Source: Heterodontus francisci (Eukaryota). Taken from it: a DNA stretch of 64,000 nt. The stretch lies in NCBI RefSeq assembly GCF_036365525.1, contig NC_090398.1:37026694-37090693 (forward strand), in the 5' to 3' direction. The notes below the pieces were generated by a model that was not told where the DNA came from, did not search any database, and worked only from the letters and a program-made list of their open reading frames with translations. The position numbers and the translations under genes were made by a program. Each line of letters opens with the position of its first letter. The first letter of the stretch is position 1. This document shows, piece by piece, positions 25,850 through 59,845 of the stretch.

Positions 25850-28800
25850 GGGTATACAAGTAGATTGGAACATAGGAGCAGGAGAAGGCCATTCAGCCCA
25901 TCGAGACTGCTCCACCATTCAATACAATCATGGTTGATCAACTACTTCAATTCTTCTTTCCAACATTATCCTCAAATCCCGTTATGTCACTTGTATTTAG
26001 AAATCAGTCAATCCATGCTTTAAACACACTCCATGTTTGTGCTTCCACATCCTCTTGGGTGAAGAATTCCAAAGATTCATAACCCTCTGAGTAAAGACAT
26101 TTCTCCTCATCTCCGTCCTAAGTGGCTTTCCCCTTATTTTGAAAATGTGTCCGCTGGTTCTGGACTCCCCAACCAGACAAAACATCTTAGTTGCAACTAC
26201 GCTGTCTATCCCGTTAAGTATTTTGGAGGTTTCAATGAGATCACCTCTCATTCTTCAAAACTGTAGAGGATAGCAAATGTTGTCCCCTTGTTCAAGAAGG
26301 GGAGTAGAGACATCCCTGGTAATTATAGACCTGTGAGCCTCACTTCGGTTGTGGGTAAAATGCTGGAAAAGGTTATAAGAGACAGGATTTATAATCATCT
26401 TGAAAAGCATAAGTTCATTAGCGATAGTCAGCACGGTTTTGTGCCGTACGGTCGTGCCTCACAAACCTTATTGAGTTTTTCGAGAAGGTAACCAAACAGG
26501 TGGATGAGGGCAAAGCAGTGGATGTGGTGTATATGGATTTCAGTAAGGCGTTTGATAAGGTTCCCCATGGTAGGCTATTGCAGAAAATACGGAAGTATGG
26601 GGTTGAAGGTGATTTAGAGCTTTGGATCAGAAATTGGCTAGCTGAAAGAAGACAGAGGGTGGTGGTTGATGGCAAATGTTCAACTTGGAGTTTAGTTACT
26701 AGTGGTGTACCGCAAGGATCTGTTTTGGGGCAACTGCTGTTTGTCAGTTTTATAAATGACCTGGAAGAGGGTGTAGAAGGGTGGGTTAGTAAATTTGCGG
26801 ATGACACTAAGGTCGGTGGAGTTGTGGATAGTGCCAAAGGATGTTGTAGGGTACAGAGGGACAGAGATAGGCTGCAGAGCTGGGCTGAGAGATGGCAAAT
26901 GGAGTTTAATGCGGAAAAGTGCAGAGTACTGGGCGCATGGGAAGATTCTTGGTAGTGTCGATGAACAGAGAGATCTTGGTGTCCAGGTGCATAAATGACT
27001 GAAGGTTGATACCCAGGTTAATAGGGCTGTTAAGAAGGCATATGGTGTGTTAGCTTTTATTAGTAGGGGAATCGAGTTTCGGAGCCACGATGTCATGCTG
27101 CAGCTGTACAAAACTCTGGTGAGACCGCACCTGGAGTATTGCGTCCAGTTCTGGTCACCGCATTATAGGAAGGATGTGGAAGCTCTGGAAAGGGTGCAGA
27201 GGAGATTTACTGGGATGTTGCCTGGTATGGAGGGAAGGTCTTAAGAGGAAAGGCTGAGGGACTTGAGGTTGTTTTCGTTGGAGAGAAGGAGGAGGAGAGG
27301 TGACTTAATAGAGACATATAAGATAATCAGAGGGTTAGATAGGGTGGATAGTGAGATTATTTTTCCTCGGATGGTGATGGCAAACACGAGGGGACATAGC
27401 TTTAAGTTGAGGGGTGATAGATATAGGACAGATGTGAGAGGTAGTTTCTTTACTCAGAGAGTAGTAGGGGTGTGGAACGCGCTGCCTGCAACAGTAGTAG
27501 ACTCGCCAACGTTAAGGGCATTTCAGTGGTCATTGGATAGACATATGGATGAAAATGGAATAGTGTAGGTCAGATGGTTTCACAGGTCGGCGCAACATCG
27601 AGTGCCGAAGGGCCTGTACTGTGCTGTAATGTTCTAATTCTAATTCGAATTCTAACACAGTCCCAGTTTCCCGAATCGTTCTTCATAGGACAGTCACACA
27701 ATCCTGGAACCAAGTCCGGTGAACCTTCATTACCCTCCATCTATGGCAAAATTATCCTGACGAAAATAAGGGGTCCAATACTGCACACAGTACTGCTGGT
27801 GCGATCAAACCAATGTTCTCTACAATTAAAGCAAGATTTCACTAATCCTGTACTCAAATCCTCATGCAATAAAGGCTAACACACCATTAGCCTTCTTCAG
27901 TGCTTGCAGTACCTGTTCGTTAGCTTTCAGTGGCTTATTAGCAAGGACACCCAGCTCTCTTTGTATATCTACATTTTATAATCTCTTACCATTTCAGAAA
28001 TATTCTGCACAAATGATCCTCCGACCAACATGGATAACCTCACATTTTTCTGCATTATATTCCATCGGTCACGTTCTTGCCCATTCACCAAGTCTGTCCA
28101 AATCCCCTTGAAGCCACTTTGCATCTTCCTCAGAACATACTTTCCCACCTACCTTTGTGTCATCCGCGAACTTGGAAATACTACAATCGCCTCCGCATCC
28201 AAATCACTGTTATATATTTTGAACAACTGGGTCCCAAGCACTGATCCCTGGGGTACCCGACTAGTCACAGCCTACCAATGCCAGAATGACCCGTTTCTTC
28301 CTACTTTCAGCTTTCTGCCTGCAAACTGATCCTTAATCCATGCCAGTATATTACTTCCTATCCCGTGTGCTTTAATTTTGCTAACCAACCCCTTATGGGG
28401 TTCTTATCAAAGGTCTTTTGAAATTCCATATATTCCATATCCACTGACTCCCCTTGATTTGTATCTCTAAATAAAAATCTATAGAACCTTTGAAGATTAT
28501 CACTAATGCATCCACTATCTTCATAGCTACATCTTTCAACTCTCTGAGATGTAGAATATCAGGTGCTGGGGACGTATAAACCTTAAGCCCCATTAATGTC
28601 TGCAATACAATCTTCTTACTAACACTAATTTCCTTCAATTTACCATTCTCCTTAATCCCTTGGATCTCGAATTCTAGGAGATTTCTTGTATCTTCCTCAC
28701 TGTAACCAGACACAAAGTAATCATTTCGCGTCTCTGCCATTTCTCTATTCCTCATAGTAAATTCGCCCGTCTCTGCCACTGATGGACCGACATTTGTCTT

Positions 28801-36462: not shown

Positions 36463-39400
36463 TGTCTTTCCTTTTCTTCATTTTTTGAAGCCTTTATGCA
36501 CCAGGCCCCTTTTAACTAATATGTCGCGGGGACCTTTAATCCTCAGGCCCCCTTTATATACATTTTATAAAATAACTTTATTGAAATCGAATAACTAAAA
36601 CAAAACTCAAATTAGAATGTCATTCTCAGCATCGATGCTGCAATCCAGTTCCTGTGGTGCCCACCGGTCATGGAAGGCCTCAGGAATACTGGTGGACACA
36701 GCATGGTCCTTCTCCAGGGACACCCGGACGCGAATGTAACCTCGGAAGAGGGGCAGGAATTCAGAGCGGACGGACCCCGTGATGGTCCGCAGCCTAGACC
36801 TGTGAAATGCCACCTTGGCCAAGCCCAGGAGCGCACCAATAAGCGGCTCTTACCAGCCCACCCCACTCTGCATTGGGTGCCCAAAGATCAGGTGCATGAG
36901 GCAGAGGTGCAGATAAAACTTGAGGAGCGTCCCATTTAAATACTTGAACAAAGGCTGTAACCTCGCACATATCATGTATACATGGAACACGGACTCGTCC
37001 AGGCCGCAGAAATTACAGGCAGCCTGGGAGTCCGTGAACCGACTTAAACGTCGACTACACGGGAGTGGCCTGTACAGTACCCGCCATCCCAGGTCCCCAA
37101 TGTAAAGGGGGAGGACTTACGCCTAGTCAGACCTCCACCGGGCTCTCCGCTCACTACCAATCGAAGCACGGATGTCCATGGTCTGTCTGGGTGGCAGAAG
37201 ATGGCAAGGAACTGCAGAGTGTGCAGGGGCAGCCGATACAGGAAACCCCTCTGCGCCGTGTGGCACGGAGGACATTTCCAAGAGGGAACTCAGGTTGCGT
37301 GGGAACGCCACCCGAGGAGGGATTCGGGGCCTGGGTTCAATTAGCAGTTCCAGCTGAGCGGGGTCAGCTCGGCCAGGAGTGCTCTGCAAACCAGTCTCTG
37401 CTCGGTACCCACAGTGAGGGGCAGCCCGGGGCTTCTGCTATTCCACTGCCCATTGGTCCGTACATGGAGCCAGAAGCACAGATTGCCAAGGTGCTCTCCT
37501 CCACCTGCGAGCAAGCGCCCTGACTGGAGGCGACCATGTTCCAGACTCAGAACTGATCCTGGTAAAACACAGGCAACTCCCTCAGAGAGGCACGGCTAAC
37601 ATTCTCTACCGGGAGCTCTGTGTCGTCTTGGAGGCAGTGCCCCAGTGCAAAATTACGTCTTCAGCCTACACCATCTGGGATGATTCCGGACATACAGGTA
37701 TCTCTGCAGGGACCGAAGGTGAAGGTTCGCAGCTCGAGAATCAGGACTGCAGCAGAGACTCAGTGGTTCCTCGTGCCCCAGAAGAAATCGACAAGCTTCT
37801 TCTGGATCTTGGTGGCGAATGCAGGTGGCAGAGCCAAAGTGACCAACCGGTACCTCAGCATCGAGGGTACCATTTGGTTTATCACCAGCGCTCAGCCCCC
37901 TGTAGGAAAGCAGTTTTAACAGTCCTGTTCAGCGCCTTAGCCAACTAGTGACTTTCAACTCCAACTCCTGCCAGTTTACCAGACAGGCATTCTTAGCGGA
38001 GCTAAGGTGGTCTCCAAGATGGAGGAGGCGCGTGGGGCTCCATGCAAAAGGTGTTATTTGCACCGGCAGGGGGTCCACCGCCTCTAACCCACCAGGAGTC
38101 CAGAATATTTCTCCCAATTGATCCTCATGGAGGACGCGGCAGAAAAGGGTCTGCTGGCACTCAAGCATCCTGCACACGTGAACGGGATCTGTGGCCATGA
38201 GGAGCACATCATCAATGTAAGCCGAGAGGACGACTCGTATGCCCAGCCCATGCAGAGCAAAACCCGTTAACCTGCCGCGAAGCAGGCACAGGAATGGCTC
38301 CAGCCAGATGGTATACAACTGGCTGGACATGGGGCATCTCTGACACACTCCTCTCCCAAAGCGAGGGGCCGCTGTCAAGGACCGATTAACTGACGAAACA
38401 CTTTGCGGTGGCATGTAAAAGTTGACCAGGACCACAAAGTTAGCCCGTTACTGAACGTGCGCAGAGTCTCAAAAAGGTATTCATGATCAACTCTGTCCAA
38501 AGCCAACTACTGATCGGGGGAGAGAAAGGCGACCGACAGACCAGTCCTCTGGGAAAGATGAATCAGGTCCCGGACCAGGTGTTTATTGTTCTGGATGGAC
38601 CGGCCCTGGACCGTGTTCGGGGTGGTTCATGTGGGCCAGCACGGAGCCCAGGTGGGGAAACATAGCCCGAGCAAAGATTTTATAATCCAGGCCGAGGAGG
38701 TCGATTGGACGCGAATTCTTAAGCAAGTGCATATCGCCCTTTTTCAGCAGCAGGACGATGCATCTCCTCGGTCGCCTGGCTTTCCCCCAGCTCCCGCACG
38801 TAATCATCCCCCAGGATATCCCAGAATGCCATGGGGAACTCAACGGTCATCTAATCCTTCCCCGGGTAATTGCCCCTCAAGAACTGGTGGAGGGCGCCGG
38901 TCAGCTCTGCCGACATAAGCAGAGCCTTCAATGTTTTGGCGCCCTCCAGGCTGAGCTTCATCAGGTCCTTCCACAAAACTCTGCACGGGTCCTCGCTGAA
39001 TTAATATGGAGAGAAAAACGGACTGTAATATGTACTGACCAGGAGGCCCATTCCATCCGGAACCGTAATGGAGCATCCCTCCTCGGCCAGCAGCTCAACG
39101 GTCTGTTTACAGGCACCCTACCTTTTTTTTCCAGGGAGTAGAAAAAGGGTGAGGCGCTCTCGAAATCGTCCATGATATGGATCTGTGATCTCATGTACGT
39201 GCCTCAGGATCCTACGAGCGGCAGGTTCTTCAGCGCGCCCTTCTCTTTGCCCGCAAAAGCATGACTGAGACAGGAATCCAAGTTGAACACGCCTCCAGGC
39301 GCCCGATCCCGGCTTGCTGCCTTTTGGTCGACCCCTTCGCATACTCCTGACAGAAGACATGGATGTGAGTCTTGCCCACATACCACCATAGCCTCAAGGA

Positions 39401-42400
39401 GGAGAACTCCCCCCCGCCCCGCTTTCTTTTCCACTAGGCGCAGAATCACTCATCATCCAGCAGGCGTTTGTTAAACAGCCACACCAGGTGATGGTCCAAT
39501 CACGACACCAAGCGCCTGGAGGCCATCAAGACACAGGAGACGTACGCTTGTGAAATGTAGAGGCAGTCGATTCGGGACCCTTTTCCTCCAGACCACCATG
39601 TGAAGGCGCTGGAGTCGGTATGGAGATTGCACCAGACGTGCACCTATTTGAAGAAGCTGATCTGATGCCTCAACATGTACACTGAACCTTGGCCGCACTG
39701 GGGACTGGAATGATCCCTCAGCTCGTGGGTACTGTTAAAATCCCCCCTGATGATGATGCACTCACCGATGTCAATAGAGTTCAAAAGAGCGGAGACTTCT
39801 TCAAAGAAACACGCTTGCAACACGCTGGGACTGTGCGCGTTCACGTTCAGAAATTGGAGTGGCATGCTACCCAGGTGAATGACGAGGTGGAGCAAACTGC
39901 CTCCTTGCCCCTTCGGATTTCTGCCTGAAAAGTCGAGGAGATTAAGATAGCCACCCTACTAGAAATAGGGGTAAGGTGACTCATGTCGACTCCATCCTGC
40001 CACTCCAGGAGCCAGATGGCTTCATTTCCCGGAATGGTGTCTCTTTTTCCTGCAGAAGGCTCACCGCAAATCTCCCTTTTCTGAGTACTGAGAGATTGTT
40101 TGATCTACAGAAGGACCCTCTACTGCCATTGATGCTGAGGCTGGCTAAGGTTTTGTTCCTGTCAAAAGTACTTAGAAACCGTCAACAAAATCTTACTGTG
40201 AGGAGGAAGCTGGAATGCATCTGGCCTTCCACTCCACCAGCAACCCATTGAGGAATGTTTTAAACCGGCGCCTCTCAACCAGTTTCATGCCCCGCCTTCT
40301 TGAGGGCGACAAAGACAGACTGGATCATTCGCGCCAGATTCGATGATCATCCAAGGGCCAGCTGAACTTTATTGCAGCAACTCCTGCATGCTCCGAAGAT
40401 GTCCCGGAGTTCCCTGATATGGATGATAGGAGACTCAGTTGAAGGCAAGAGGGAGTCCACCACCTCACTGACGATGCATTTAAGAATATCCGCCGTGCCC
40501 CACAACGGCTCCTCATCCTCCTCCAAGACTTCACCGCCAGTAGCCAACCCACGCACCACAGACTGAGGGGCTGGCTTCCCAACCGCGTCAGCTGGTCTCA
40601 CCACCAGCACAATCCCAGCCCCAGGATCGATGGCGGAGGAGTCCTCTGCCATATCCAGCCGAATATGCGACCGGAGGCAGAGAGAGGAGGCCATCCCCCG
40701 CTCCGCCAGCGCCCATAGACCCAGCTGATGGGAAATTACACAAATTGCCCTCTGGGTAAGGCACATCCCGGGCAGTAGCATCAGTCTCCCATGCAGGACA
40801 CCCGGCCCAGTGGCAGATAGAATATTTGCACCCATCGGGTCCACAGGCTCCCTCACCATGTGAGGGCACCCCCACCTCTGGAGTCGCTGTGATTAGAGGG
40901 GCATCCCCGGCAGCCCTTCCGTTGCGAGGAGCAGTCAGTTCCCGCCCAGGGCTCGAGGCCTTCATGGAGCCTCAGGACCCGCGCCAGCTGATGGGCCTTG
41001 CAACTCACTGACCTCGTCAGAGCATGGATGTCTCCTCCACTTATTTTGGTAGTGGTGCAGAGTCTCAGTGACCTTCATTTCAGCAGCGACCTCTGCTTCT
41101 CCCTTCGTGCTCCCTTGCCCAGTTTCTTGGGACCTAGCTCAGCCTTGGGGTAGGTGGCCTCCCCTGGTTCAATCGTAGCGCTGACGTCAGGCTCAGGTCC
41201 ATTTTTTGTGCCCGGGGGCACACCTTCGCGTGTTTTTTTTTGCGCCTTGCCTTCCATCCACAAGGGCGGGTCTCCACCTCCCCACAGGAAGCCTGGAAGT
41301 CTATGGCCTCTGGAACCGCCGATGTGGTGTCTGATGGAGGTGTGGTGTGAGCGGGAGGAGGTGCATCAGCGCCAACCTGGGCTCCTGAGGTGGAGTTGGA
41401 GGCCAGAAGGTTGCAGCAGTTATTATGAACGTGCCCCACCCCCTTACACTGCGCCCTGTCCGAAGTCCAGCAGACGAGGTAGGCTGGCCTCTGGAATTTC
41501 ACATTGAAATAGCCTTCTAAGACCTCTTCCCGCGCCAGCTGCATAAAGAGCTGGTGGCGGAAGGAGTAGACATGCCAGAGGCTGTTCTCCACAAGACCGA
41601 GCCGGCCTATGGGAGACACCTGAACTTACCTCCCCCCAGATTGTGCAGATGGGGGAGGAGTAGCTTCCTGGGAATGAAGCACGGGACGTTTGATAATATG
41701 ATCATATGTACACTATCCCCTGGAGTGTCCACCAGCAGGAAAGCCCTCACCACAGCGAGCCCCTTACTCTGTGCCAGAGTCATGGCCACTCGGACTTCAG
41801 GATGACACAGCCATCTTGTATATCTTCGAGGCTGCATCCATGGCCGAGGGGTCAACAACCTTGGTTATTGCCTTTATGAAGGCCTCAATGGACTTGTTGG
41901 GGTGGGATAACTCTTCACCCCAAGGAAGGATGTTATTAATTTAACGGGTAATGGGACTACATGGGCAGCCACAGAGGCTGCAGCTGCATGGTAGCGCCCC
42001 CCTCCCCCACGCCCCCCAACCCCCACCGGTGAAGGGCGTGCTGATGGTCTAAAAGCTAAACCCACTTTGAGTTCTCGGTTGCAAATCGAACAAACTGAAA
42101 GATTCACAAGGGATACTTAATTAAAAAAAAGCAGGTTCGGGGCGAGGCTTAGGATATCGAGGAGAGGAAGAGGCAGGCGGTAAGGGATGTCTTGCTCTCA
42201 GGAGGTGGTGCACACAGCACACTTAAAATAGTCTTTGCAAGTACTATTTGTTTTCTGGTCTTTTGATTAGGGTAGACGTCTTCAACTGGGTCAGCTGAAG
42301 CTGCTAATGCACGATTTATCCCCTTCCATCTCTTTAGCCGGGCAGCATCAGCTGACCAAGCCTTAACAATTGGGGTTGTTTGCGGGGGTTGGGAGTGAGT

Positions 42401-44269: not shown

Positions 44270-45477
44270 AAGATCATACTAAATAGGTGCTGGAGTTGGC
44301 TATTCAGCCCCTCGAGCCTGCTCTTCCTTTCAATATGTTCATGGCTGATCTGATCGTGAACTCAACTGCACATTCCTGCCTGCCCCCCATAACCCTTGAG
44401 TCCATTGTCGACCACAAATCTGTCTAACGCAGCCCTGAATATCTTCAATGAACCAACCTCCACTGCACTCTGGGGAAGATAATTCCAAAGTCTAACCAAC
44501 TGCTGGGAGAAAAGAAAAGTTCTTCTCATCTTTGTCATAAATGGGAGGCCATTAATGTTTACCTGCGCCCCCTAGTTCTAGACTCCCCCACAATGAGAAC
44601 ATCCTCCCAGCATCCACACTGTCAAGCCCCTCAAAATCTTATCTGTTTCAATAAGATCTCCTCTCATTCTTCTAAACTCCAATGAGTATAGGCCCAACTT
44701 GCTCAACCATCCCTCATAAGACAACACCTTCATCCCAGGAATCAGCCAAGTGAACTATCTCTGAACTGATTCCAATACATCCAGGCCTGACCATTTATCC
44801 ACTTTCAAAGATACCACACACCTTAATATTTCCCTCTCACTCTGTTTATCCCATCCAATATTTCATGCTCCTCTTTAACTACAATGTCTGCATCATTCCC
44901 TCCGCTTTTATGAGGACAGACACAAAGTATTCATGAAGTGCCATGCTCACATCTCCCACCTCCGCACACACGTTCCCTTTTTGGTCTCTTATACTCTATC
45001 CTTAATTATCCTCCTGCTCTTAATGCATTTATAAAACATTTTGCAGTTTCCTTGGTTTTACTTGACAATATTTTTTGCAGCCATCACTTTGCTTTCCTAA
45101 TTTGCATTTTAGTTTTACCCCTGGACTTTCGACACTCTTCTCGGATTTTTGTGGTATTAAACTCCCGGTATCTGACATAACCTTCCCGTTTGTGTCTTGT
45201 CCTATCCAGTTAGCTCCTTGATATCCAAGGGGCTCTATATTTGGGACTCTCAGCCTTTTTGGCTTTTTACGAACATATTTGTTCTCAACCCTCATTAACT
45301 CTCACTGCTCTGACACTGATTTACCTTTAGGTAGCTGTTTCCAATCCACTTTGCTTAACCCTCTCCTCCCTGGAACTACCATCTCACGTGCACCCGCTGA
45401 AGGGCCCTCACATCCATCCAAACGTGTAGTGACCAGAACTGGATGCAGTATTCCAGTTGTGGCCCAAACAGAGTTTT
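44270..45477 (-). mobile_element. Old CR1 fragments; the last one is the host of the young CR1 and resumes at 50412
   Basis: CR1 3'-end reverse complement (ggagttggctattcagcccctcgagcctg, cctctcattcttctaaactcc) and ccagaactggatgcagtattccag (rc of LEYCIQFW). Confidence 0.7.
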
Positions 45478-46318
45478 GGTGACTGCAGCGTGGATAGCAA
45501 CGGAGGTGCGTGAACGGGCTTACAGATTTGAAGTCAATTTCAGCGTAAGTTTAAAAGTGAATTCCCTTTTGTTTTCGGAGGACCAGGGGACTGCTGGGTA
45601 AGGAAAAAGGTATATATTTGTGTGGTTTAGAATCTCTTTCTTTTAGTTTCGGTGACTGCAGCGTGGATAGCAACGGAGGTGCGTGAACGGGCTGACAGCT
45701 GTGAAGTCAATTTCAGCGTAAGTTTAAAAGTGAATTCCCTTTTGTTTTCGGAGGACCAGGGGACTGCTGGGTAAGGAAAAAGGTATATATTTGTGTGGTT
45801 TAGAATCTCTTTCTTTTAGTTTCGGTGACTGCAGCGTGGATAGCAACGGAGGTGCGTGAACGGGCTTACAGCTGTGAAGTCAATTTCAGCGTAAGTTTAA
45901 AAGTGAATTCCCTTTTGTTTTCGGAGGACCAGGGGACTGCTGGGTAAGGAAAAAGGTATATATTTGTGTGGTTTAGAATCTCTTTCTTTTAGTTTCGGTG
46001 ACTGCAGCGTGGATAGCAACGGAGGTGCGTGAACGGGCTTACAGCTGTGAAGTCAATTTCAGCGTAAGTTTAAAAGTGAATTCCCTTTTGTTTTCGGAGG
46101 ACCAGGGGACTGCTGGGTAAGGAAAAAGGTATATATTTGTGTGGTTTAGAATCTCTTTCTTTTAGTTTCGGTGACTGCAGCGTGGATAGCAACGGAGGTG
46201 CGTGAACGGGCTTACAGCTGTGAAGTCAATTTCAGAGTAAGTTTAAAAGTGAATTCCCTTTTGTTTTCGGAGGACCAGGGGACTGCTGGGTAAGGAAAAA
46301 GGTATATATTTGTGTGGT
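45478..46318 (+). repeat. 173-bp tandem monomer array (~4.9 copies) in the CR1 5' UTR
   Basis: Unit ggtgactgcagcgtggatagc... starts at 45478, 45651, 45824, 45997, 46170; only a few substitutions between copies. Confidence 0.97.
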
Positions 46319-46328
46319 GGCTGTACCC

Positions 46329-46352
46329 GAGACACTACACGTGTAGTGTCTC
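46329..46352. promoter_or_regulatory. Perfect 24-bp palindrome centred on E-box CACGTG
   Basis: gagacactacac|gtgtagtgtctc. Confidence 0.7.
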
Positions 46353-46517
46353 CCACCCACCCTCCTCCTCTAACCATAAAAAAAGGACTCTGGTGTGTTG
46401 ATAAGGTAAGCTTTTTATTTAGGAAGTTCTGTCCGTTGGATTGCTAACCTAACAAGTTTTGACTTTTTGTTTTTTTTGGTTTTTCAGTAGATTTGTTGGG
46501 AATTTGGAATAGTGGGA

Positions 46518-47436
46518 ATGGAGGTTAAGGCAGTTGCATGTTCCTCCTTCAGAATGTGGGTCGCCAAGAGTGTCCCTGCTGACTGCATCTGTGGGAAGTG
46601 CACCCAACTCCAGCTCTTCGAGAACCGCGTCAGGGAACTGGAGCTGGAGCTGGATGAACTTCGGATCATTCGGGAGGCGGAGGAGGTTATTGAGAGTAGT
46701 TATGGGGAAGTAGTCACACCTCAGGTAAAAGAAGTAGGTAGATGGGTTACCGTCAGGGGAAGGAGAGGGAACCAGCAGGCAGTGCAGGGATCCCCTGTGG
46801 CCGTTTCCCTCAACAACAGGTATACCGTTTTGGATACTGTTGCGGGGGACGACTTACCAGGGGTAAGCAATGGGGTACAGATATCTGGCACAGAGTCTGT
46901 CCCTGTTGCTCAGAAGGGAAGGGGGAAGAGGAGCAGAACATTAGTCATTGGGGACTCCATAGTTAGGGGAACAGATAGGAGGTTCTGTGGGAACGAGAGA
47001 GACTCACGGTTGGTATGTTGCCTCCCAGGTTCGTGATGTCTCGGATCGTATTTTTGGGATCCTTAATGGGGAGGGGGAGCAGCCCCAAGTCGTGGTCCAT
47101 ATAGGCACCAACGACATAGGTAGGAAGAGAGATGGGGATTTAAGACAGAAATTTAGGGAGCTAGGGTGGAAGCTTAGAGCGAGAACAAACAGAGTTGTTA
47201 TCTCTGGGCTGTTGCCCGTGCCACGTGATAGCGAAGCGAGGAATAGGGAGAGAGAGGAGTTGAACACGTGGCTGCAGGGATGGTGCAGGAGGGAGGGTTT
47301 TGGTTTCCTGGATAATTGGGGCTCTTTCTGGGGTAGGTGGGACCTCTACAAACAGGATGGTCTTCACCTGAACCAGAGGGGTACCAATATCCTGGGGGGG
47401 AGGTTTGCTAGTGCTCTTCTGGGGGGTTTAAACTAA
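46518..47436 (+). pseudogene. CR1 ORF1 (zinc finger, coiled coil, SGNH esterase), frameshifted at ~47030
   Basis: CSSF..CGKC, LENRVRELELELDEL-like zipper, GDSIVRG (block I), HIGTND (block III), DGLHL (block V), split over ORFs 46512-47036 and 46987-47436. Confidence 0.88.
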
Positions 47437-47507
47437 TTCAGCAGGGGAATGGGAACCTAAATTGTAGTGCCAGTGTACAGGATGTTGAGAGTAGTGAGGT
47501 CAGGGAT

Positions 47508-50318
47508 ATGGTTACAAGGACGCAAGAGGGCACTGGCAAGCAAGAACCTGGTTTAAAGTGTGTCTATTTCAACGCCAGGAGCATCCGGAATAAGGTGGGT
47601 GAGCTTGAAGCATGGGTTGGTACCTGGGATCTCGATGTAGTGGCCATTTCGGAGACATGGGTAGAGCAGGGGCAGGAATGGATGTTGCAGATTCCGGGAT
47701 TTAGATGTTTCAGTAAGAACAGAGAAGATGGTAAAAGAGGGGGGTGGGGTGTGGCATTGTTAATCAAGGAGAGTATTACAGCGACAGAAAGGACGTTTGA
47801 GGACTCGGCTACTGAGGTAGTATGGGCTGAGGTTAGAAACAGGAGAGGTGAGGTTACCCTGTTGGGAGTCTTTTATAGACCTCCGAATAGTTCCAGAGAT
47901 GTAGAGGAAAGGATAGCGAAGATGATTCTCGACAGGGGTGAGAGTAACAGGGTAGTTGTTATGGGGGAGTTTAACTTTCCAAATATCGACTGGAAATACT
48001 ATAGTTCGAGTACTTTAGATGGGTCAGTTTTTGTCCAGTGTGTGCAGGAGGATTTTCTGACACAGTATGTAGACAGGCCAACCAGGGGCGATGCCACATT
48101 GGATTTGGTACTGGGAAATGAACAAGGCCAGGTGTTAGATTTAGATGTAGGTGAGCACTTTGGTGATAGTGATCACAATTCGGTTAGGTTTACCTTAGCG
48201 ATGGGCAGGGACAGGTATATACCGCAGGGCAAGAATTATAACTGGGGGAAAGGAAATTATGATGCGATTAGGCAAGATTTAGGATGCGTAGGATGGGGAA
48301 GGAAACTGCAGGGGATGGGAACAATCGAAATGTGGAGCTTATTCAAGGAGCAGCTACTGCGTGTCCTTGATAAGTATGTACCTGTGAGGCAGGGAGGAAG
48401 TTGTCGTGCGAGGGAGCCGTGGTTTACTAAAGAAGTTGAAGCGCTTGTCAAGAGGAAGAAGAAGGCTTATGTTAGGATGAGACGTGAAGGCTCAGTTAGG
48501 GCGCTTGAGAGCTACAAGCTAGCCAGGAAGGATCGAAAGGGAGAGCTAAGAAGAGCAAGGAGAGGACACGAGAAGTCATTGGTGGATCGGATCAGGGAAA
48601 ACCCTAAGGCTATCTATAGGTATATCAGGAATAAAGGAATGACTAGAGTTAGATTAGGGCCAATCAAGGATAGTAGTGGGAAGTTGTGTGTGGAATCAGA
48701 GGAGATAGGGGAAGTGTTAAATGAATATTTTGCGTCAGTATTTACAGTAGAGAATGAAAATGTTCTTGAGAATACTGAGATTCAGGCTACGAGGCTAGAT
48801 GGGATTGAGGTTCACAAGGAGGAGGTGTTAGCAATTTTGGAAAGTGTGAAAATAGATAAGTCGCCTGGGCCAGATGGGATTTATCCTAGGATTCTCTGGG
48901 AAGCTAGGGAGGAGATTGCAGAGCCTTTGTCCTTGATCTTTATGTCGTCATTGTCGACAGGAATAGTGCCGGAAGACTGGAGGATTGCAAATGTTGTCCC
49001 CTTGTTCAAGAAGGGGAGTAGAGACAGCCCTGGTAATTATAGACCTGTGAGCCTTACTTCGGTTGTGGGTAAAATGTTGGAAAAGGTTATAAGAGACAGG
49101 ATTTATAATCATCTTGAAAAGAATAAGTACATTAGAGATAGTCAGCACGGTTTTGTGACGGGTAGGTCGTGCCTCACAAACCTTATTGAGTTTTTCGAGA
49201 AGGTGACCAAACAGGTGGATGAGGGTAAAGCAGTGGATGTGGTGTATATGGATTTCAGTAAGGCGTTTGATAAGGTTCCCCACGGTAGGCTATTGCAGAA
49301 AATACGCAAGTATGGGGTTGAAGGTGATTTAGAGCTTTGGATCAGAAATTGGCTAGCTGAAAGAAGACAGAGGGTGGTGGTTGATGGCAAATGTTCATCC
49401 TGGAGTTTAGTTACTAGTAGTGTACCGCAAGGATCTGTTTTGGGGCCACTGCTGTTTGTCATTTTTATAAATGACCTGGAAGAGGGTGTAGAAGGGTGGG
49501 TTAGTAAATTTGCAGATGACACTAAGGTCGGTGGAGTTGTGGATAGTGCCGAAGGATGTTGTCGGGTACAGAGAGACATAGATAGGCTGCAGAGCTGGGC
49601 TGAGAGATGGCAAATGGAGTTTAATGCGGAAAAGTGTGAGGTGATTCACTTTGGAAGGAGTAACAGGAATGCAGAGTACTGGGCTAATGGGAAGATTCTT
49701 GGTAGTGTAGATGAACAGAGAGATCTTGGTGTCCAGGTGCATAAATCCCTGAAGGTTGCTAACCAGGTTAATAGGGCTGTTAAGAAGGCATATGGTGTGT
49801 TAGCTTTTATTAGTAGGGGGGTCGAGTTTCGGAGCCACGAGGTCATGCTGCAGCTGTACAAAACTCTGGTGAGACCGCACCTGGAGTATTGCGTGCAGTT
49901 CTGGTCACCGCATTCTAGGAAGGATGTGGAAGCTATGGAAAGGGTGCAGAGGAGATTTACTAGGATGTTGCCTGGTATGGAGGGAAGGTCTTACGAGGAA
50001 AGGCTGAGGGACTTGAGGTTGTTTTCGTTGGAGAGAAGGAGGAGGAGAGGTGACTTAATAGAGACATATAAGATAATCAGAGGGTTAGATAGGGTGGATA
50101 GTGAGCGTCTTTTTCCTCGGATGGTGATGGCAAACACGAGGGGACATAGCTTCAAGTTGAGGGGTGATAGATATCGGACAGATGTGAGAGGTAGTTTCTT
50201 TATTCAGAGCGTAGTAAGGGCGTGGAACGCCCTGCCTGCAGCAGTAGTAGATTCGCCAACTTTAAGGGCATTTAAGTGGACATTGGATAGACACATGGAT
50301 GAAAATGGAATAGTGTAG
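47508..50318 (+). CDS. CR1 ORF2: apurinic-like endonuclease plus reverse transcriptase, 936 aa open
   Basis: YFNARSI, ISETW, YRPP, GEFN, SDH; KSPGPDG, NYRPVSLTS, YMDFSKAFD, PQGSVLGP, FADD, LEYCVQFWSP. Confidence 0.95.
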   Translation: MVTRTQEGTGKQEPGLKCVYFNARSIRNKVGELEAWVGTWDLDVVAISETWVEQGQEWMLQIPGFRCFSKNREDGKRGGWGVALLIKESITATERTFEDSATEVVWAEVRNRRGEVTLLGVFYRPPNSSRDVEERIAKMILDRGESNRVVVMGEFNFPNIDWKYYSSSTLDGSVFVQCVQEDFLTQYVDRPTRGDATLDLVLGNEQGQVLDLDVGEHFGDSDHNSVRFTLAMGRDRYIPQGKNYNWGKGNYDAIRQDLGCVGWGRKLQGMGTIEMWSLFKEQLLRVLDKYVPVRQGGSCRAREPWFTKEVEALVKRKKKAYVRMRREGSVRALESYKLARKDRKGELRRARRGHEKSLVDRIRENPKAIYRYIRNKGMTRVRLGPIKDSSGKLCVESEEIGEVLNEYFASVFTVENENVLENTEIQATRLDGIEVHKEEVLAILESVKIDKSPGPDGIYPRILWEAREEIAEPLSLIFMSSLSTGIVPEDWRIANVVPLFKKGSRDSPGNYRPVSLTSVVGKMLEKVIRDRIYNHLEKNKYIRDSQHGFVTGRSCLTNLIEFFEKVTKQVDEGKAVDVVYMDFSKAFDKVPHGRLLQKIRKYGVEGDLELWIRNWLAERRQRVVVDGKCSSWSLVTSSVPQGSVLGPLLFVIFINDLEEGVEGWVSKFADDTKVGGVVDSAEGCCRVQRDIDRLQSWAERWQMEFNAEKCEVIHFGRSNRNAEYWANGKILGSVDEQRDLGVQVHKSLKVANQVNRAVKKAYGVLAFISRGVEFRSHEVMLQLYKTLVRPHLEYCVQFWSPHSRKDVEAMERVQRRFTRMLPGMEGRSYEERLRDLRLFSLERRRRRGDLIETYKIIRGLDRVDSERLFPRMVMANTRGHSFKLRGDRYRTDVRGSFFIQSVVRAWNALPAAVVDSPTLRAFKWTLDRHMDENGIV

Positions 50319-50411
50319 GTCAGATGGTTTCACAGGTCGGCGCAACATCGAGGGCCGAAGGGCCTGTACTGCGCTGTAATGTTCTAAATTCTAAATTCTA
50401 AAATTCTAAAT

Positions 50412-51650
50412 TAAAAAGGTTCAGCACAACTTCCATGTTTTGGTACACAACGCCTCTCTTCATGAAGCCTAAGATCCCATATGGTTTGCTGACTACTCTC
50501 TCAATATGACCTGCCACCTTCAAAGTTGTATGCACAAGCACGCCCTGCACACTTCAATGAGAATATATTGTCTCTCCCTATCTCTTCTGCCAAAATACAT
50601 CACCTCACAATTTCCCCGTATTAAATTGCATCTGAAACTTGTCTGCCCATTCTGCTCGCCTATCTATGTCATGTTGCATTCGATTGGTATCATCGTCGCT
50701 GTTTGTATCTCCTCCAAGTTTCGTATCATTGGCAAATATTGAAATTTTACTCTGTGTTCTGAAATCCAAGTCATTTATATATATCAGAAAAAAATGACAG
50801 TGGTTCTAGTACTGACTATTGGGGAACACCGCTGTCTGATATCTTCCAGTCTGTAAAACAACCATCTACCTCGATTCGCTGTTTTCTGTCCTTTTGCATT
50901 TTTCTTATTCAAGCTGACACTGGCCCTCCTATTCCGTGAGCCTCAGTTTTGTTAACCAGACTTTTATATTTTCCTTGGTCAAACATTTCTTAAAATCCAT
51001 TTAAATCCATTGCATTCCCTTAATCAACCTTCTCTGTTACTTCGTCAAACAATTCAATTAGATTAGTCAAGTACTTTCTGCCTTTTACAAATCTATGCTG
51101 GCTTTCCATCATTAACTCGAATACCTCCAAGTGCCTGTTAATTTTTTTTCTCTTCCAAGTATTTACTTAACTCTCCTTTTGAAATCGACTATTGAATCTG
51201 TATCGGCCACTATCATGCATTATATTTCAATCAGAAGCACTTGAGTAAAAGAAATCTTCATGTCTCCTCCGTTTTTTCTTTGCCAATCACCTTCAATTGG
51301 TGCTCCCTGGTTATCAATCCTTCAGCCATTGGAAACAGTTCCTCTTTATTCCCTCGATCTAAAGCTTCCATAATTTTAAACATCTCTATCAAATCTCCAT
51401 TTACGCTTCCCTGTTCTAAAGACAACAACCCCAGCTTCTCTATCAGCGTAACTGTAATCATCTCATCTCTGGAATCATTCCAGTAAATCTCTTCTGTGCA
51501 TTCACCAAAGCCTCAAAGTCCTTCATAAAGTGTGGTCCCAGAACTGGACACTATCTTCCAGCTGGGTAAAAAACTATTATCTAGCATCGCTTCCTGACAT
51601 TTATATTCTCGACCTCTGTTTATAAAGGCCAGGATCCCATCTGCTTTATA
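50412..51650 (-). mobile_element. Old CR1 fragments (host continuation and a further piece)
   Basis: Minus ORF EKLGLLSLEQGSVNGDLIEMFKIM; ccagaactggacactat. Confidence 0.7.
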
Positions 51651-53089: not shown

Positions 53090-53398
53090 CCCCTCCATTT
53101 AATACGTAGCTGGGGAGCTTCCCCAATTTTGTACGTAGAGAACAGCTCTCTTCAGTTGATCCGTCGAGGGGAGCACCCTCTATTTCATATGTAAAGAGGG
53201 GGCACCCACCAGTTTACACGTAGAGGAGCAGCTCCCTCCATTTTATACGTAAAGGAGGAGCTCGCTCCATTTTATAAGTGGAGGGGGAGCACCCTTCATT
53301 TTATAAGTAGGGGGAGGGAGTTCCCGCCGTTTTATAAGTAGAGGCGGAACTCCCTCCATTTTGTACACAGAGGTGGAGCTCCCTCCATTTATACGTTG
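53090..53398. repeat. ~32-bp minisatellite (tccattttatacgtagaggggagctccc)
   Basis: About 9-10 diverged copies; a stray unit near 54110-54140. Confidence 0.8.
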
Positions 53399-54499
53399 GG
53401 AGGGAGAATGTTTGTCTCTGTTACGGTTCCCATAACGTTACCCCAGGATCCCCACGCAGACTATTTCCCCATTCCCCTGCTTCTCAAGTGTATCAGGGTC
53501 TCCTGGCACTTTCTATTTCTCTGCTTTGTCTCTATCCCTTCCTATCTCTCTGTTCTCTCTGTATTTCTATGTCTCCCGATCCCTATGTTACTCTGCCTCT
53601 GTTCCTCTCTCTCTTTCTCTCATTCTATCCCATCGCCTTGGCTATCACAAGGGGTCTAGTTAAAGCACTCACAAAATAAACACTTCACCTGTCTGCCACG
53701 CTTAAATAGCATTTTCTTTTTATGTATTATCTCTACATTAATACAATATAGACAGCAAAGCATATGAATTGCCGGGATACTGCAAATCTTTTTACTCTAA
53801 GTCCACACATTACCGTATTTTTGCAATAAGGTAATATTGATTCTATTCAAGGCTCTGGGACAACATTTCATTCGGTAAACATTCTCACCAAATACTAAAG
53901 CATTCCACAATGCAAGACTAACAAATTCAGCACAAGTTTCGTTTTTTGATTCGAGCTGGCCTGTTCTGATTCTCTGAGAGATCACTGATATTTATTCTCC
54001 ACATGAGCAGTCGTTCTCATCCTGTGTGCCTATCCTGCTCTGAAACCCAGCATCCGGTTACATTAAGACAAGTGACACAGGGGTGGCTCAGTAACTGAGG
54101 CACGTGAGTCTTTTCTACGGGGGAGTTCCCTTCATTTTATAGTTGGCTTGGCGGCATTTGATGGAGCCTTAGCATGTATGCCATGAATTTAGAATGAAAA
54201 GGGTTGATTTGATCAACGTTTGCAAAATAATACTGGAAACTGATGGGGTCTTTAAAGTGATACGTTTCTGATTGGTTGGGGGAGCTTCCCACTGGGGGCA
54301 AGGGTTGTCTCATTGTAAAATACAAGATTATGAAGGGACCTTACAGGGTAAACACTGAGAGGATGTTTCCGGCGGCTGGATAATGTAGAACAGGGGCCGT
54401 GTGGGGTGGAGGGTGGGGACAGACTCATTATAAGGGGCCAATTATTTAGAACTGAGATGAAACCTCTTATTCACGTATTTAAGTCTAAATCAATTCCCA

Positions 54500-59499: not shown

Positions 59500-59845
59500 T
59501 ATCACAGTGATTGGGAGATGTTGTGAGGGGCAGTAACTGCAGTGACACGGGGACACCAGCAGATGAAGATGATAAGAGGAGACCATAACTGACTGCAGTA
59601 AAACACAGACACCAGCAGATGGAGATGGTGAGAAAGGGCAGGAACTGAGTGCAGTGAGACAGGGACACCAGCAGCTGGAGAAGGTGGGAGGGGATGTAAA
59701 TGAGTGCAATGACAAAGAGACACCAGCAGATCGCGATAGTAAGAGGAGAACCGTTACTGCAGTGAGTCAGGGGCACCAGCAGATGGAGATGGGGAGAGGG
59801 GGCAGTAACTGCAATGAGAAAGGGACACCTGCAGATGGAAACACA
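59500..59845. repeat. ~55-bp minisatellite (gcagtgagacagggacaccagcagatggagatgg)
   Basis: 'acaccagcagatg' recurs six times. Confidence 0.8.

Follow-up and report, generated by a model that had tools for sequence, protein, structure and literature searches.

Does the tandem array at the 5' end of a CR1-type LINE in the shark Heterodontus francisci work as a renewable promoter, or did it expand by accident at one locus? We analyzed a stretch of 64,000 nucleotides from this shark (the window), and we compared the element in it to other copies across the genome (6.0 Gb searched). A young family of CR1-type LINEs carries this array as its 5' end, which varies in length between copies, and each unit of the array includes an intron that is exactly absent from some retrocopies. 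We think it probable, given the sequence patterns described below, that the array would act as a stack of promoters that can be renewed, with each exon-plus-intron unit having its own start site, as in the monomers of rodent L1.

A young CR1 element within an older one

The element is 4.9 kb long, belongs to a young CR1-type family, and is nested within an older CR1. All of its parts are on the + strand: the array (45472..46318); a unique 5' UTR of 199 bases between the array and ORF1, which we call the tether (46319..46517); ORF1 (46518..47436, with its ATG at 46518); ORF2 (47412..50318); and a short 3' UTR that ends with a TTCTAAA microsatellite tail (50319..50412). ORF1 contains an SGNH/GDSL esterase domain (PF13472 in Pfam, E = 2e-13) and is similar to the ORF1 protein of PDB 4c1b (E = 6e-21). 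ORF2 has 968 open codons and encodes an AP endonuclease and a reverse transcriptase (PF03372 and PF00078). The reading frame of ORF1 is broken in the window by a short deletion near 47030. Across 76 copies whose ORFs we parsed (18 more were missed by the start motif and left out), ORF1 is 311 amino acids long in 45, and both frames are open in about 25.

The older CR1 is on the - strand. Its left part (44399..45477, the 3' part of its ORF2) ends at 2449 and its right part (50413..51151) begins at 2448, in coordinates on the element's ORF2 (from tblastx). This confirms, to the base, an earlier reading of the window from its sequence alone, which had the host CR1 continuous across the insertion. 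At the 5' junction, AGTTT is common to the element and the host (5 bases of microhomology). No target-site duplication is visible at this insertion, and by eye, we saw no clear ones in the other copies of the family.

Canonical CR1 LINEs encode an esterase-type ORF1, and their ORF2 combines an AP endonuclease and a reverse transcriptase; this element has both ORFs. A short 3' UTR with a microsatellite tail and little or no target duplication are also hallmarks of CR1, and they are found in this family, whose tails are TTCTAA(A) repeats (short A-runs terminate some copies). Our use of the name CR1 is based on these predicted domains and 3' end features. The L1 clade is instead marked by an L1-type ORF1 and a poly(A) tail, in place of which this family has the esterase and the microsatellite. 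The likeness to rodent L1 is one of design, not of descent. According to the available text of PMC13343379, an esterase ORF1 is encoded by canonical CR1s or by elements that they cluster with, and Zenon, Rex1, and chondrichthyan L2 elements lack ORF1.

The window also includes a 5'-truncated relative of the same element (26266-27655, 93% identity over the last 1.4 kb) and another decayed LINE-like element on the - strand (37929-41625), with a weak match to reverse transcriptase (E = 8e-4) in one of the four frames scanned. Diverged tandem arrays are found at 2006-2567 (84 bp), 53091-53403 (29 bp), and 59536-59799 (56 bp).

Each unit comprises an exon and an intron

Tandem Repeats Finder (TRF) reported a period of 173, 4.9 copies, and 99% matches, so the description of the array as nearly five nearly identical units was accurate. 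There are just five single-unit differences across the five units of the window. The array was also said to lie directly upstream of ORF1, which is incorrect, as the tether intervenes.

Each 173-bp unit consists of a 71-base exon and a 102-base GT-AG intron (GTAAGT...TTTTAG). For instance, one exon is at 45647..45717; it is the part that is retained in spliced retrocopies, it contains CpGs, and its G+C content is 54% (44% for the whole unit). The intron that follows is at 45718..45819, and the introns of the other units begin at 45545, 45891, 46064, and 46237. A second donor is found 53 bases into each intron (45598, 45771, 45944, 46117, and 46290). The acceptor is part of the motif CTTTTAG (45640..45646, and again at 45813, 45986, and 46159), which is also the commonest 5' end of the copies and the inferred start site. 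Each intron contains a TATA-like box, TATATATT, at 45611..45618 and also at 45784, 45957, 46130, and 46303. The tether has a third donor (46406), which was used by one copy, and the last acceptor (46487, with an alternative AG 3 bases on), which was used by 23 copies. It also has a perfect 24-bp palindrome (46329-46352), where the contigs of one public run (X4) are far deeper than alongside.

Arrays are widespread and vary in length

Genome-wide, we found 618 exact matches to the junction between the array and the UTR, 1,022 to the junction between two units, and 2,046 matches to a motif in the tether. From the first 100 junction matches, we sampled 90 loci, including one tandem-duplicate pair. 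(The other 10 matches were three multi-unit copies that are also in another set and seven others.) One locus has at least 17 units and overran its stretch, so we excluded it, which left 89. Three of these have no unit, 36 have one, 17 have two, 12 have three, 11 have four, and four have five; the longer arrays have seven units (two loci), eight (two loci), 14, or 16 (one locus each).

A second set of 34 other loci, which were picked for their best matches to the unit, added arrays of 34 units (5.9 kb, L096+L097) and 63 units (10.9 kb, L093+L094+L095), each followed by a full element. In these two cases, the 5' end of a LINE is turning into a satellite-like block. Overall, sampled copies have 1 to 63 units. 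The third sample was the first 100 tether matches, which were chosen by a motif outside the array; no part of the exon was recognized in 19 of these. A DNA search with the start of ORF1 served as an array-independent sample.

One concern was that other copies might carry a single unit, so that the array would have expanded at this locus alone, or that the array is an assembly artefact. The units are 99% alike, as such an origin might lead one to expect. But at least two units are present in 50 of the 89 junction-sampled copies and in 40 of the 100 tether-sampled copies; unit number varies across many copies, with the tether linking array to ORF1, as in a monomer array; and the five single-unit mutations in the window match the copy's age. 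Also, the joint between units was seen in all four of the public runs examined (from 2 samples). Given this and the 1,022 exact junctions, an assembly artefact is unlikely. The genome-wide junctions and the sampled arrays rule out local expansion and assembly error.

The family is young: bodies mostly have 0.1-0.6% private change. The tether sample also includes sister subfamilies with units of 172 bp or 163 bp, both of which form arrays. Divergence between unit types (compared for the window, L093, and L215) is 11-21% for the exon and 6-13% for the intron, versus 3-5% for the ORF1 region. In the sister subfamilies, the body is likewise 3-5% away from the element in the window, and the exon about 20%. 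This divergence may reflect rapid change at the presumed promoter. In L223 and L224, the last unit runs through the spacer and meets the tether about 108 bases in; the two joints are alike.

Copies begin at a fixed point in the unit

In mouse L1, the clustering of 5' ends at one point of the monomer is a signature of monomer promoters, and start sites were placed by this kind of profile and checked with CAGE (available text of PMC6454616). In the shark family, the 5' ends of 72 out of 89 copies fall in a single 15-base interval of the 173-base unit, as do those of 45 out of 50 multi-unit copies. In CTTTTAG, the C is the start of 23 of the 89 copies, the T that follows it is the start of 19, and the A is the start of 10. 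The upstream edge is sharp, with only two copies beginning further upstream within the interval. For the 163-bp type, 18 of 29 copies begin at the matching T-run. Because no AG follows that T-run, the fixed start is not an effect of the splice acceptor. Even among copies that lost the last intron, 14 of 20 begin at the common unit boundary.

The C of the next unit lies 29 bases downstream of the first base of each intron's TATA-like box. At 30 bases upstream of the start, the 163-bp unit has TATTTATT, and TATATATT is found there in a more distant relative. TATA boxes are usually found at about -30. RNA polymerase II likely starts at the CTTTTAG in each unit.

The fixed 5' ends could instead be stops of the reverse transcriptase or joins by microhomology at T-runs, with transcription from flanking promoters and with the units being mainly splice modules. 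Another CTTTT, within the intron, has a smaller cluster of starts (four of the 29 copies with 163-bp units, and also L074 and L281), which suggests that T-runs may attract truncation. T-runs are lengthened at the junction in some copies, and the microhomology at the junction in the window would also fit. But the main cluster is far larger than the one at the other T-run, its edge is sharp at a single C, and the pyrimidines upstream are almost never included. Truncation would not account for the TATA-like boxes at the usual distance in both the 173-bp and 163-bp types, nor for the splicing of the first intron in particular (see below). We consider this explanation to be improbable.

Three other ideas about the starts were set aside. 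First, an extra G, as might be added with a cap, was seen at 13 of 27 starts versus 7.7 expected (p = 0.024), which is weak, and the enrichment vanished upon pooling of all starts between -7 and -2 (24/75 versus 21.1 expected), so we dropped it. Second, reverse transcription could stop at the branch point of a lariat, but no A adjoins the start in the 173-bp unit. Third, the TATA-like box of the last unit might drive starts in the tether. Of the seven copies that begin in its first 29 bases, four begin at bases 17-20, which is near the predicted place, but the 24-bp palindrome is at the same place.

Spliced retrocopies

Introns are retained in most copies. Nevertheless, we counted 39 exact intron-less joints between exons, spread over 24 loci; among them is a stretch of 14 exons in a row. 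In 23 copies, the exon is joined directly to the acceptor that precedes the ATG by 30 bases; 20 of these use the first AG and three use the AG three bases on. There is no microhomology at the main splice joint. The second donor was used in four copies whose first donor reads GG, and two of these four joints show some microhomology. These deletions are exact GT-AG losses at donor and acceptor sites, like the spliced integrated retrotransposed elements (SpIREs) of human L1.

A spliced joint is present in 9 of 51 multi-unit copies. These copies show that multi-unit RNA was made, spliced, and retrotransposed, which points to transcripts of polymerase II. Five copies of the 173-bp type are partly spliced, and in all five, it is the 5'-most intron that was lost. 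Loss of the 5'-most intron is expected next to the cap. The contigs of 8 public runs (24 runs in total, one of which is recorded as RNA) contained neither a splice joint nor a start, so they are uninformative.

We also considered that arrays arise as rolling copies of a back-spliced circle. This predicts intron-less joints at regular steps, but the 1,022 unit-unit junctions keep the intron.

Units are gained and lost

In arrays of up to eight units, the ratios of observed to expected single-unit mutations were 1.0-1.3. For instance, arrays of 5-8 units have 36 such mutations versus 35.8 expected from the bodies, and the window has 5 versus 4.2 expected, where the rate from the bodies is an upper bound on age, as it counts changes inherited from unsampled parents. 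This fits with these arrays, including the window's, being inserted at their present length. In contrast, arrays of nine or more units have just 27 single-unit mutations versus 74.4 expected, and private mutations are repeated in blocks of 6-15 units, which would fit with growth in place. L230 has a duplicated block that includes a spliced joint. Unit number can also change after insertion: L199 and L200 are duplicates of one insertion, with 99.3% identity across the 5' flank and array, and they differ by one unit. Deletion between units after insertion, of which this pair is an instance, would also give variable counts with a fixed start.

A tree of the bodies from 93 loci includes an 11-copy clade with 1 to 8 units. 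We looked in this tree for a parent and daughter whose arrays would reveal an internal start, and for a variant that separates internal starts from deletions, and found neither.

These results bear on the alternative that only the 5'-most unit has a promoter and that the other units are a neutral passenger minisatellite. The change between L199 and L200, the growth of the longest arrays in blocks, and the spread of subfamily variants to all of the units of an array are as expected for a minisatellite, and the phase lock needs no internal start: the lock and the variable counts are explained equally well. On the other hand, the units are nearly identical, so each should contain the same internal signals. 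Also, a 13-base spacer is missing from single-unit copies and is kept in all three unit types. Neutrality does not predict this, and as single-unit copies cannot rebuild the spacer, it suggests that the source elements had more than one unit throughout. Very young single-unit copies (L099, L129, and L133, with 0.2% private change) also weigh against this alternative. Overall, we think that a passenger minisatellite is unlikely, though less so than truncation at T-runs.

If the promoter stack is correct, then transcripts would start at a unit boundary and carry the downstream units onward. 5' truncation, splicing, and deletion would take units away, and unequal exchange or slippage in the DNA would restore them; template jumping by the reverse transcriptase may be another way to add units. 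Unspliced RNA would found most new copies, and spliced RNA would be used to translate ORF1, with any copies made from it being weaker or dead. The 36 of 89 copies with a single unit weigh against the promoter stack.

Comparison to known systems

Mouse L1Md A, Tf, and Gf have the same layout, with ORF1 preceded by a unique tether and, upstream of the tether, by tandem units of about 200 bp; they also have variable unit numbers, a common start point in the unit, and several unit types (available text of PMC6454616, PMC9022269, and PMC5381506). The same sources report a need for two monomers and predict cryptic splice sites; for mouse Tf monomers, the predicted sites may explain 22 genomic copies (PMC9022269). 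The shark element differs in being of CR1 type, in its much tighter start phase, and in that its unit is a full exon-intron module, with the spliced joints described above. Its unit has a G+C content of 44% and includes a TATA-like box, and the word TATA is absent from the available text of PMC9022269. Promoter activity was demonstrated for the mouse monomers; for the shark CR1, we infer it. The L1-like design proposed by the sequence-only reading is upheld as to variable arrays across the family and the locked start phase, but that reading overlooked the intron and the TATA-like box.

Arrays at the 5' end have been described before in the CR1 group: Stuart et al. 2026 (PMC13343379) report subunits of 100-500 bp near the 5' UTR. 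As given in the legend of their Fig 4, these are 1-5 subunits in some ORF1-less elements, and the legend does not give a function, a start phase, or an intron. In the shark family, an esterase ORF1 is present, and arrays reach 63 units. SpIREs of human L1 are also retrocopies of RNAs spliced in the 5' UTR and recognized as exact deletions, but that splice removes part of a single promoter (available text of PMC5860796), while in the shark CR1, every unit has an intron, which is conserved across subfamilies. Penelope has a short 5' UTR intron, 46 bases after the start and within the promoter region, that is kept in copies, and in the composite promoter of HeT-A, an upstream repeat serves the downstream copy (both from the available text of PMC2377424). 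These are other classes of elements, and the upstream repeat of HeT-A is the 3' end of a neighbor instead of a dedicated array.

In the literature that we searched, we did not find a CR1 that has both ORF1 and an array with phase-locked starts and introns; one may be present in subscription papers, Repbase, Dfam, or supplements. The design of the array is known from rodent L1 and was likely reached separately in another group of retrotransposons. How LINEs maintain a promoter despite 5' loss is best known from rodent L1, and the shark CR1 would be an independent case, as well as a concrete candidate for the promoter of a vertebrate CR1. How mouse L1 monomers duplicate is still described as unclear (available text of PMC6454616). 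In the shark family, very young copies number in the hundreds, the start phase is sharp to a few bases, and there are three unit types; with the record of splicing that is built into the copies, it is possible to count the units gained and lost.

A possible relay between units

A copy that begins at CTTTTAG lacks a TATA-like box for its first unit. Unit n+1 may rely on the box of unit n for its start. This leads to a special case of the promoter stack, in which the promoter of each unit is the box in the preceding unit's intron, the first unit of a new copy has no promoter, and the array regrows in the DNA like a minisatellite. We offer this relay tentatively, as something less likely than not. 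At the level of sequence, the intron is conserved as a whole, and this conservation is not specific to the box.

If the relay is correct, then at least one unit would be lost in each round of retrotransposition, and splicing would erase boxes. The family would survive solely by regrowth of the array in the DNA, and copies with one unit, as well as those that are fully spliced, would leave no progeny.

Two distant relatives (the 5' ends of L274 and L276) have a much shorter head, which retains the start at the T-run, the second donor, and TATATATT. This short head is perhaps the core module.
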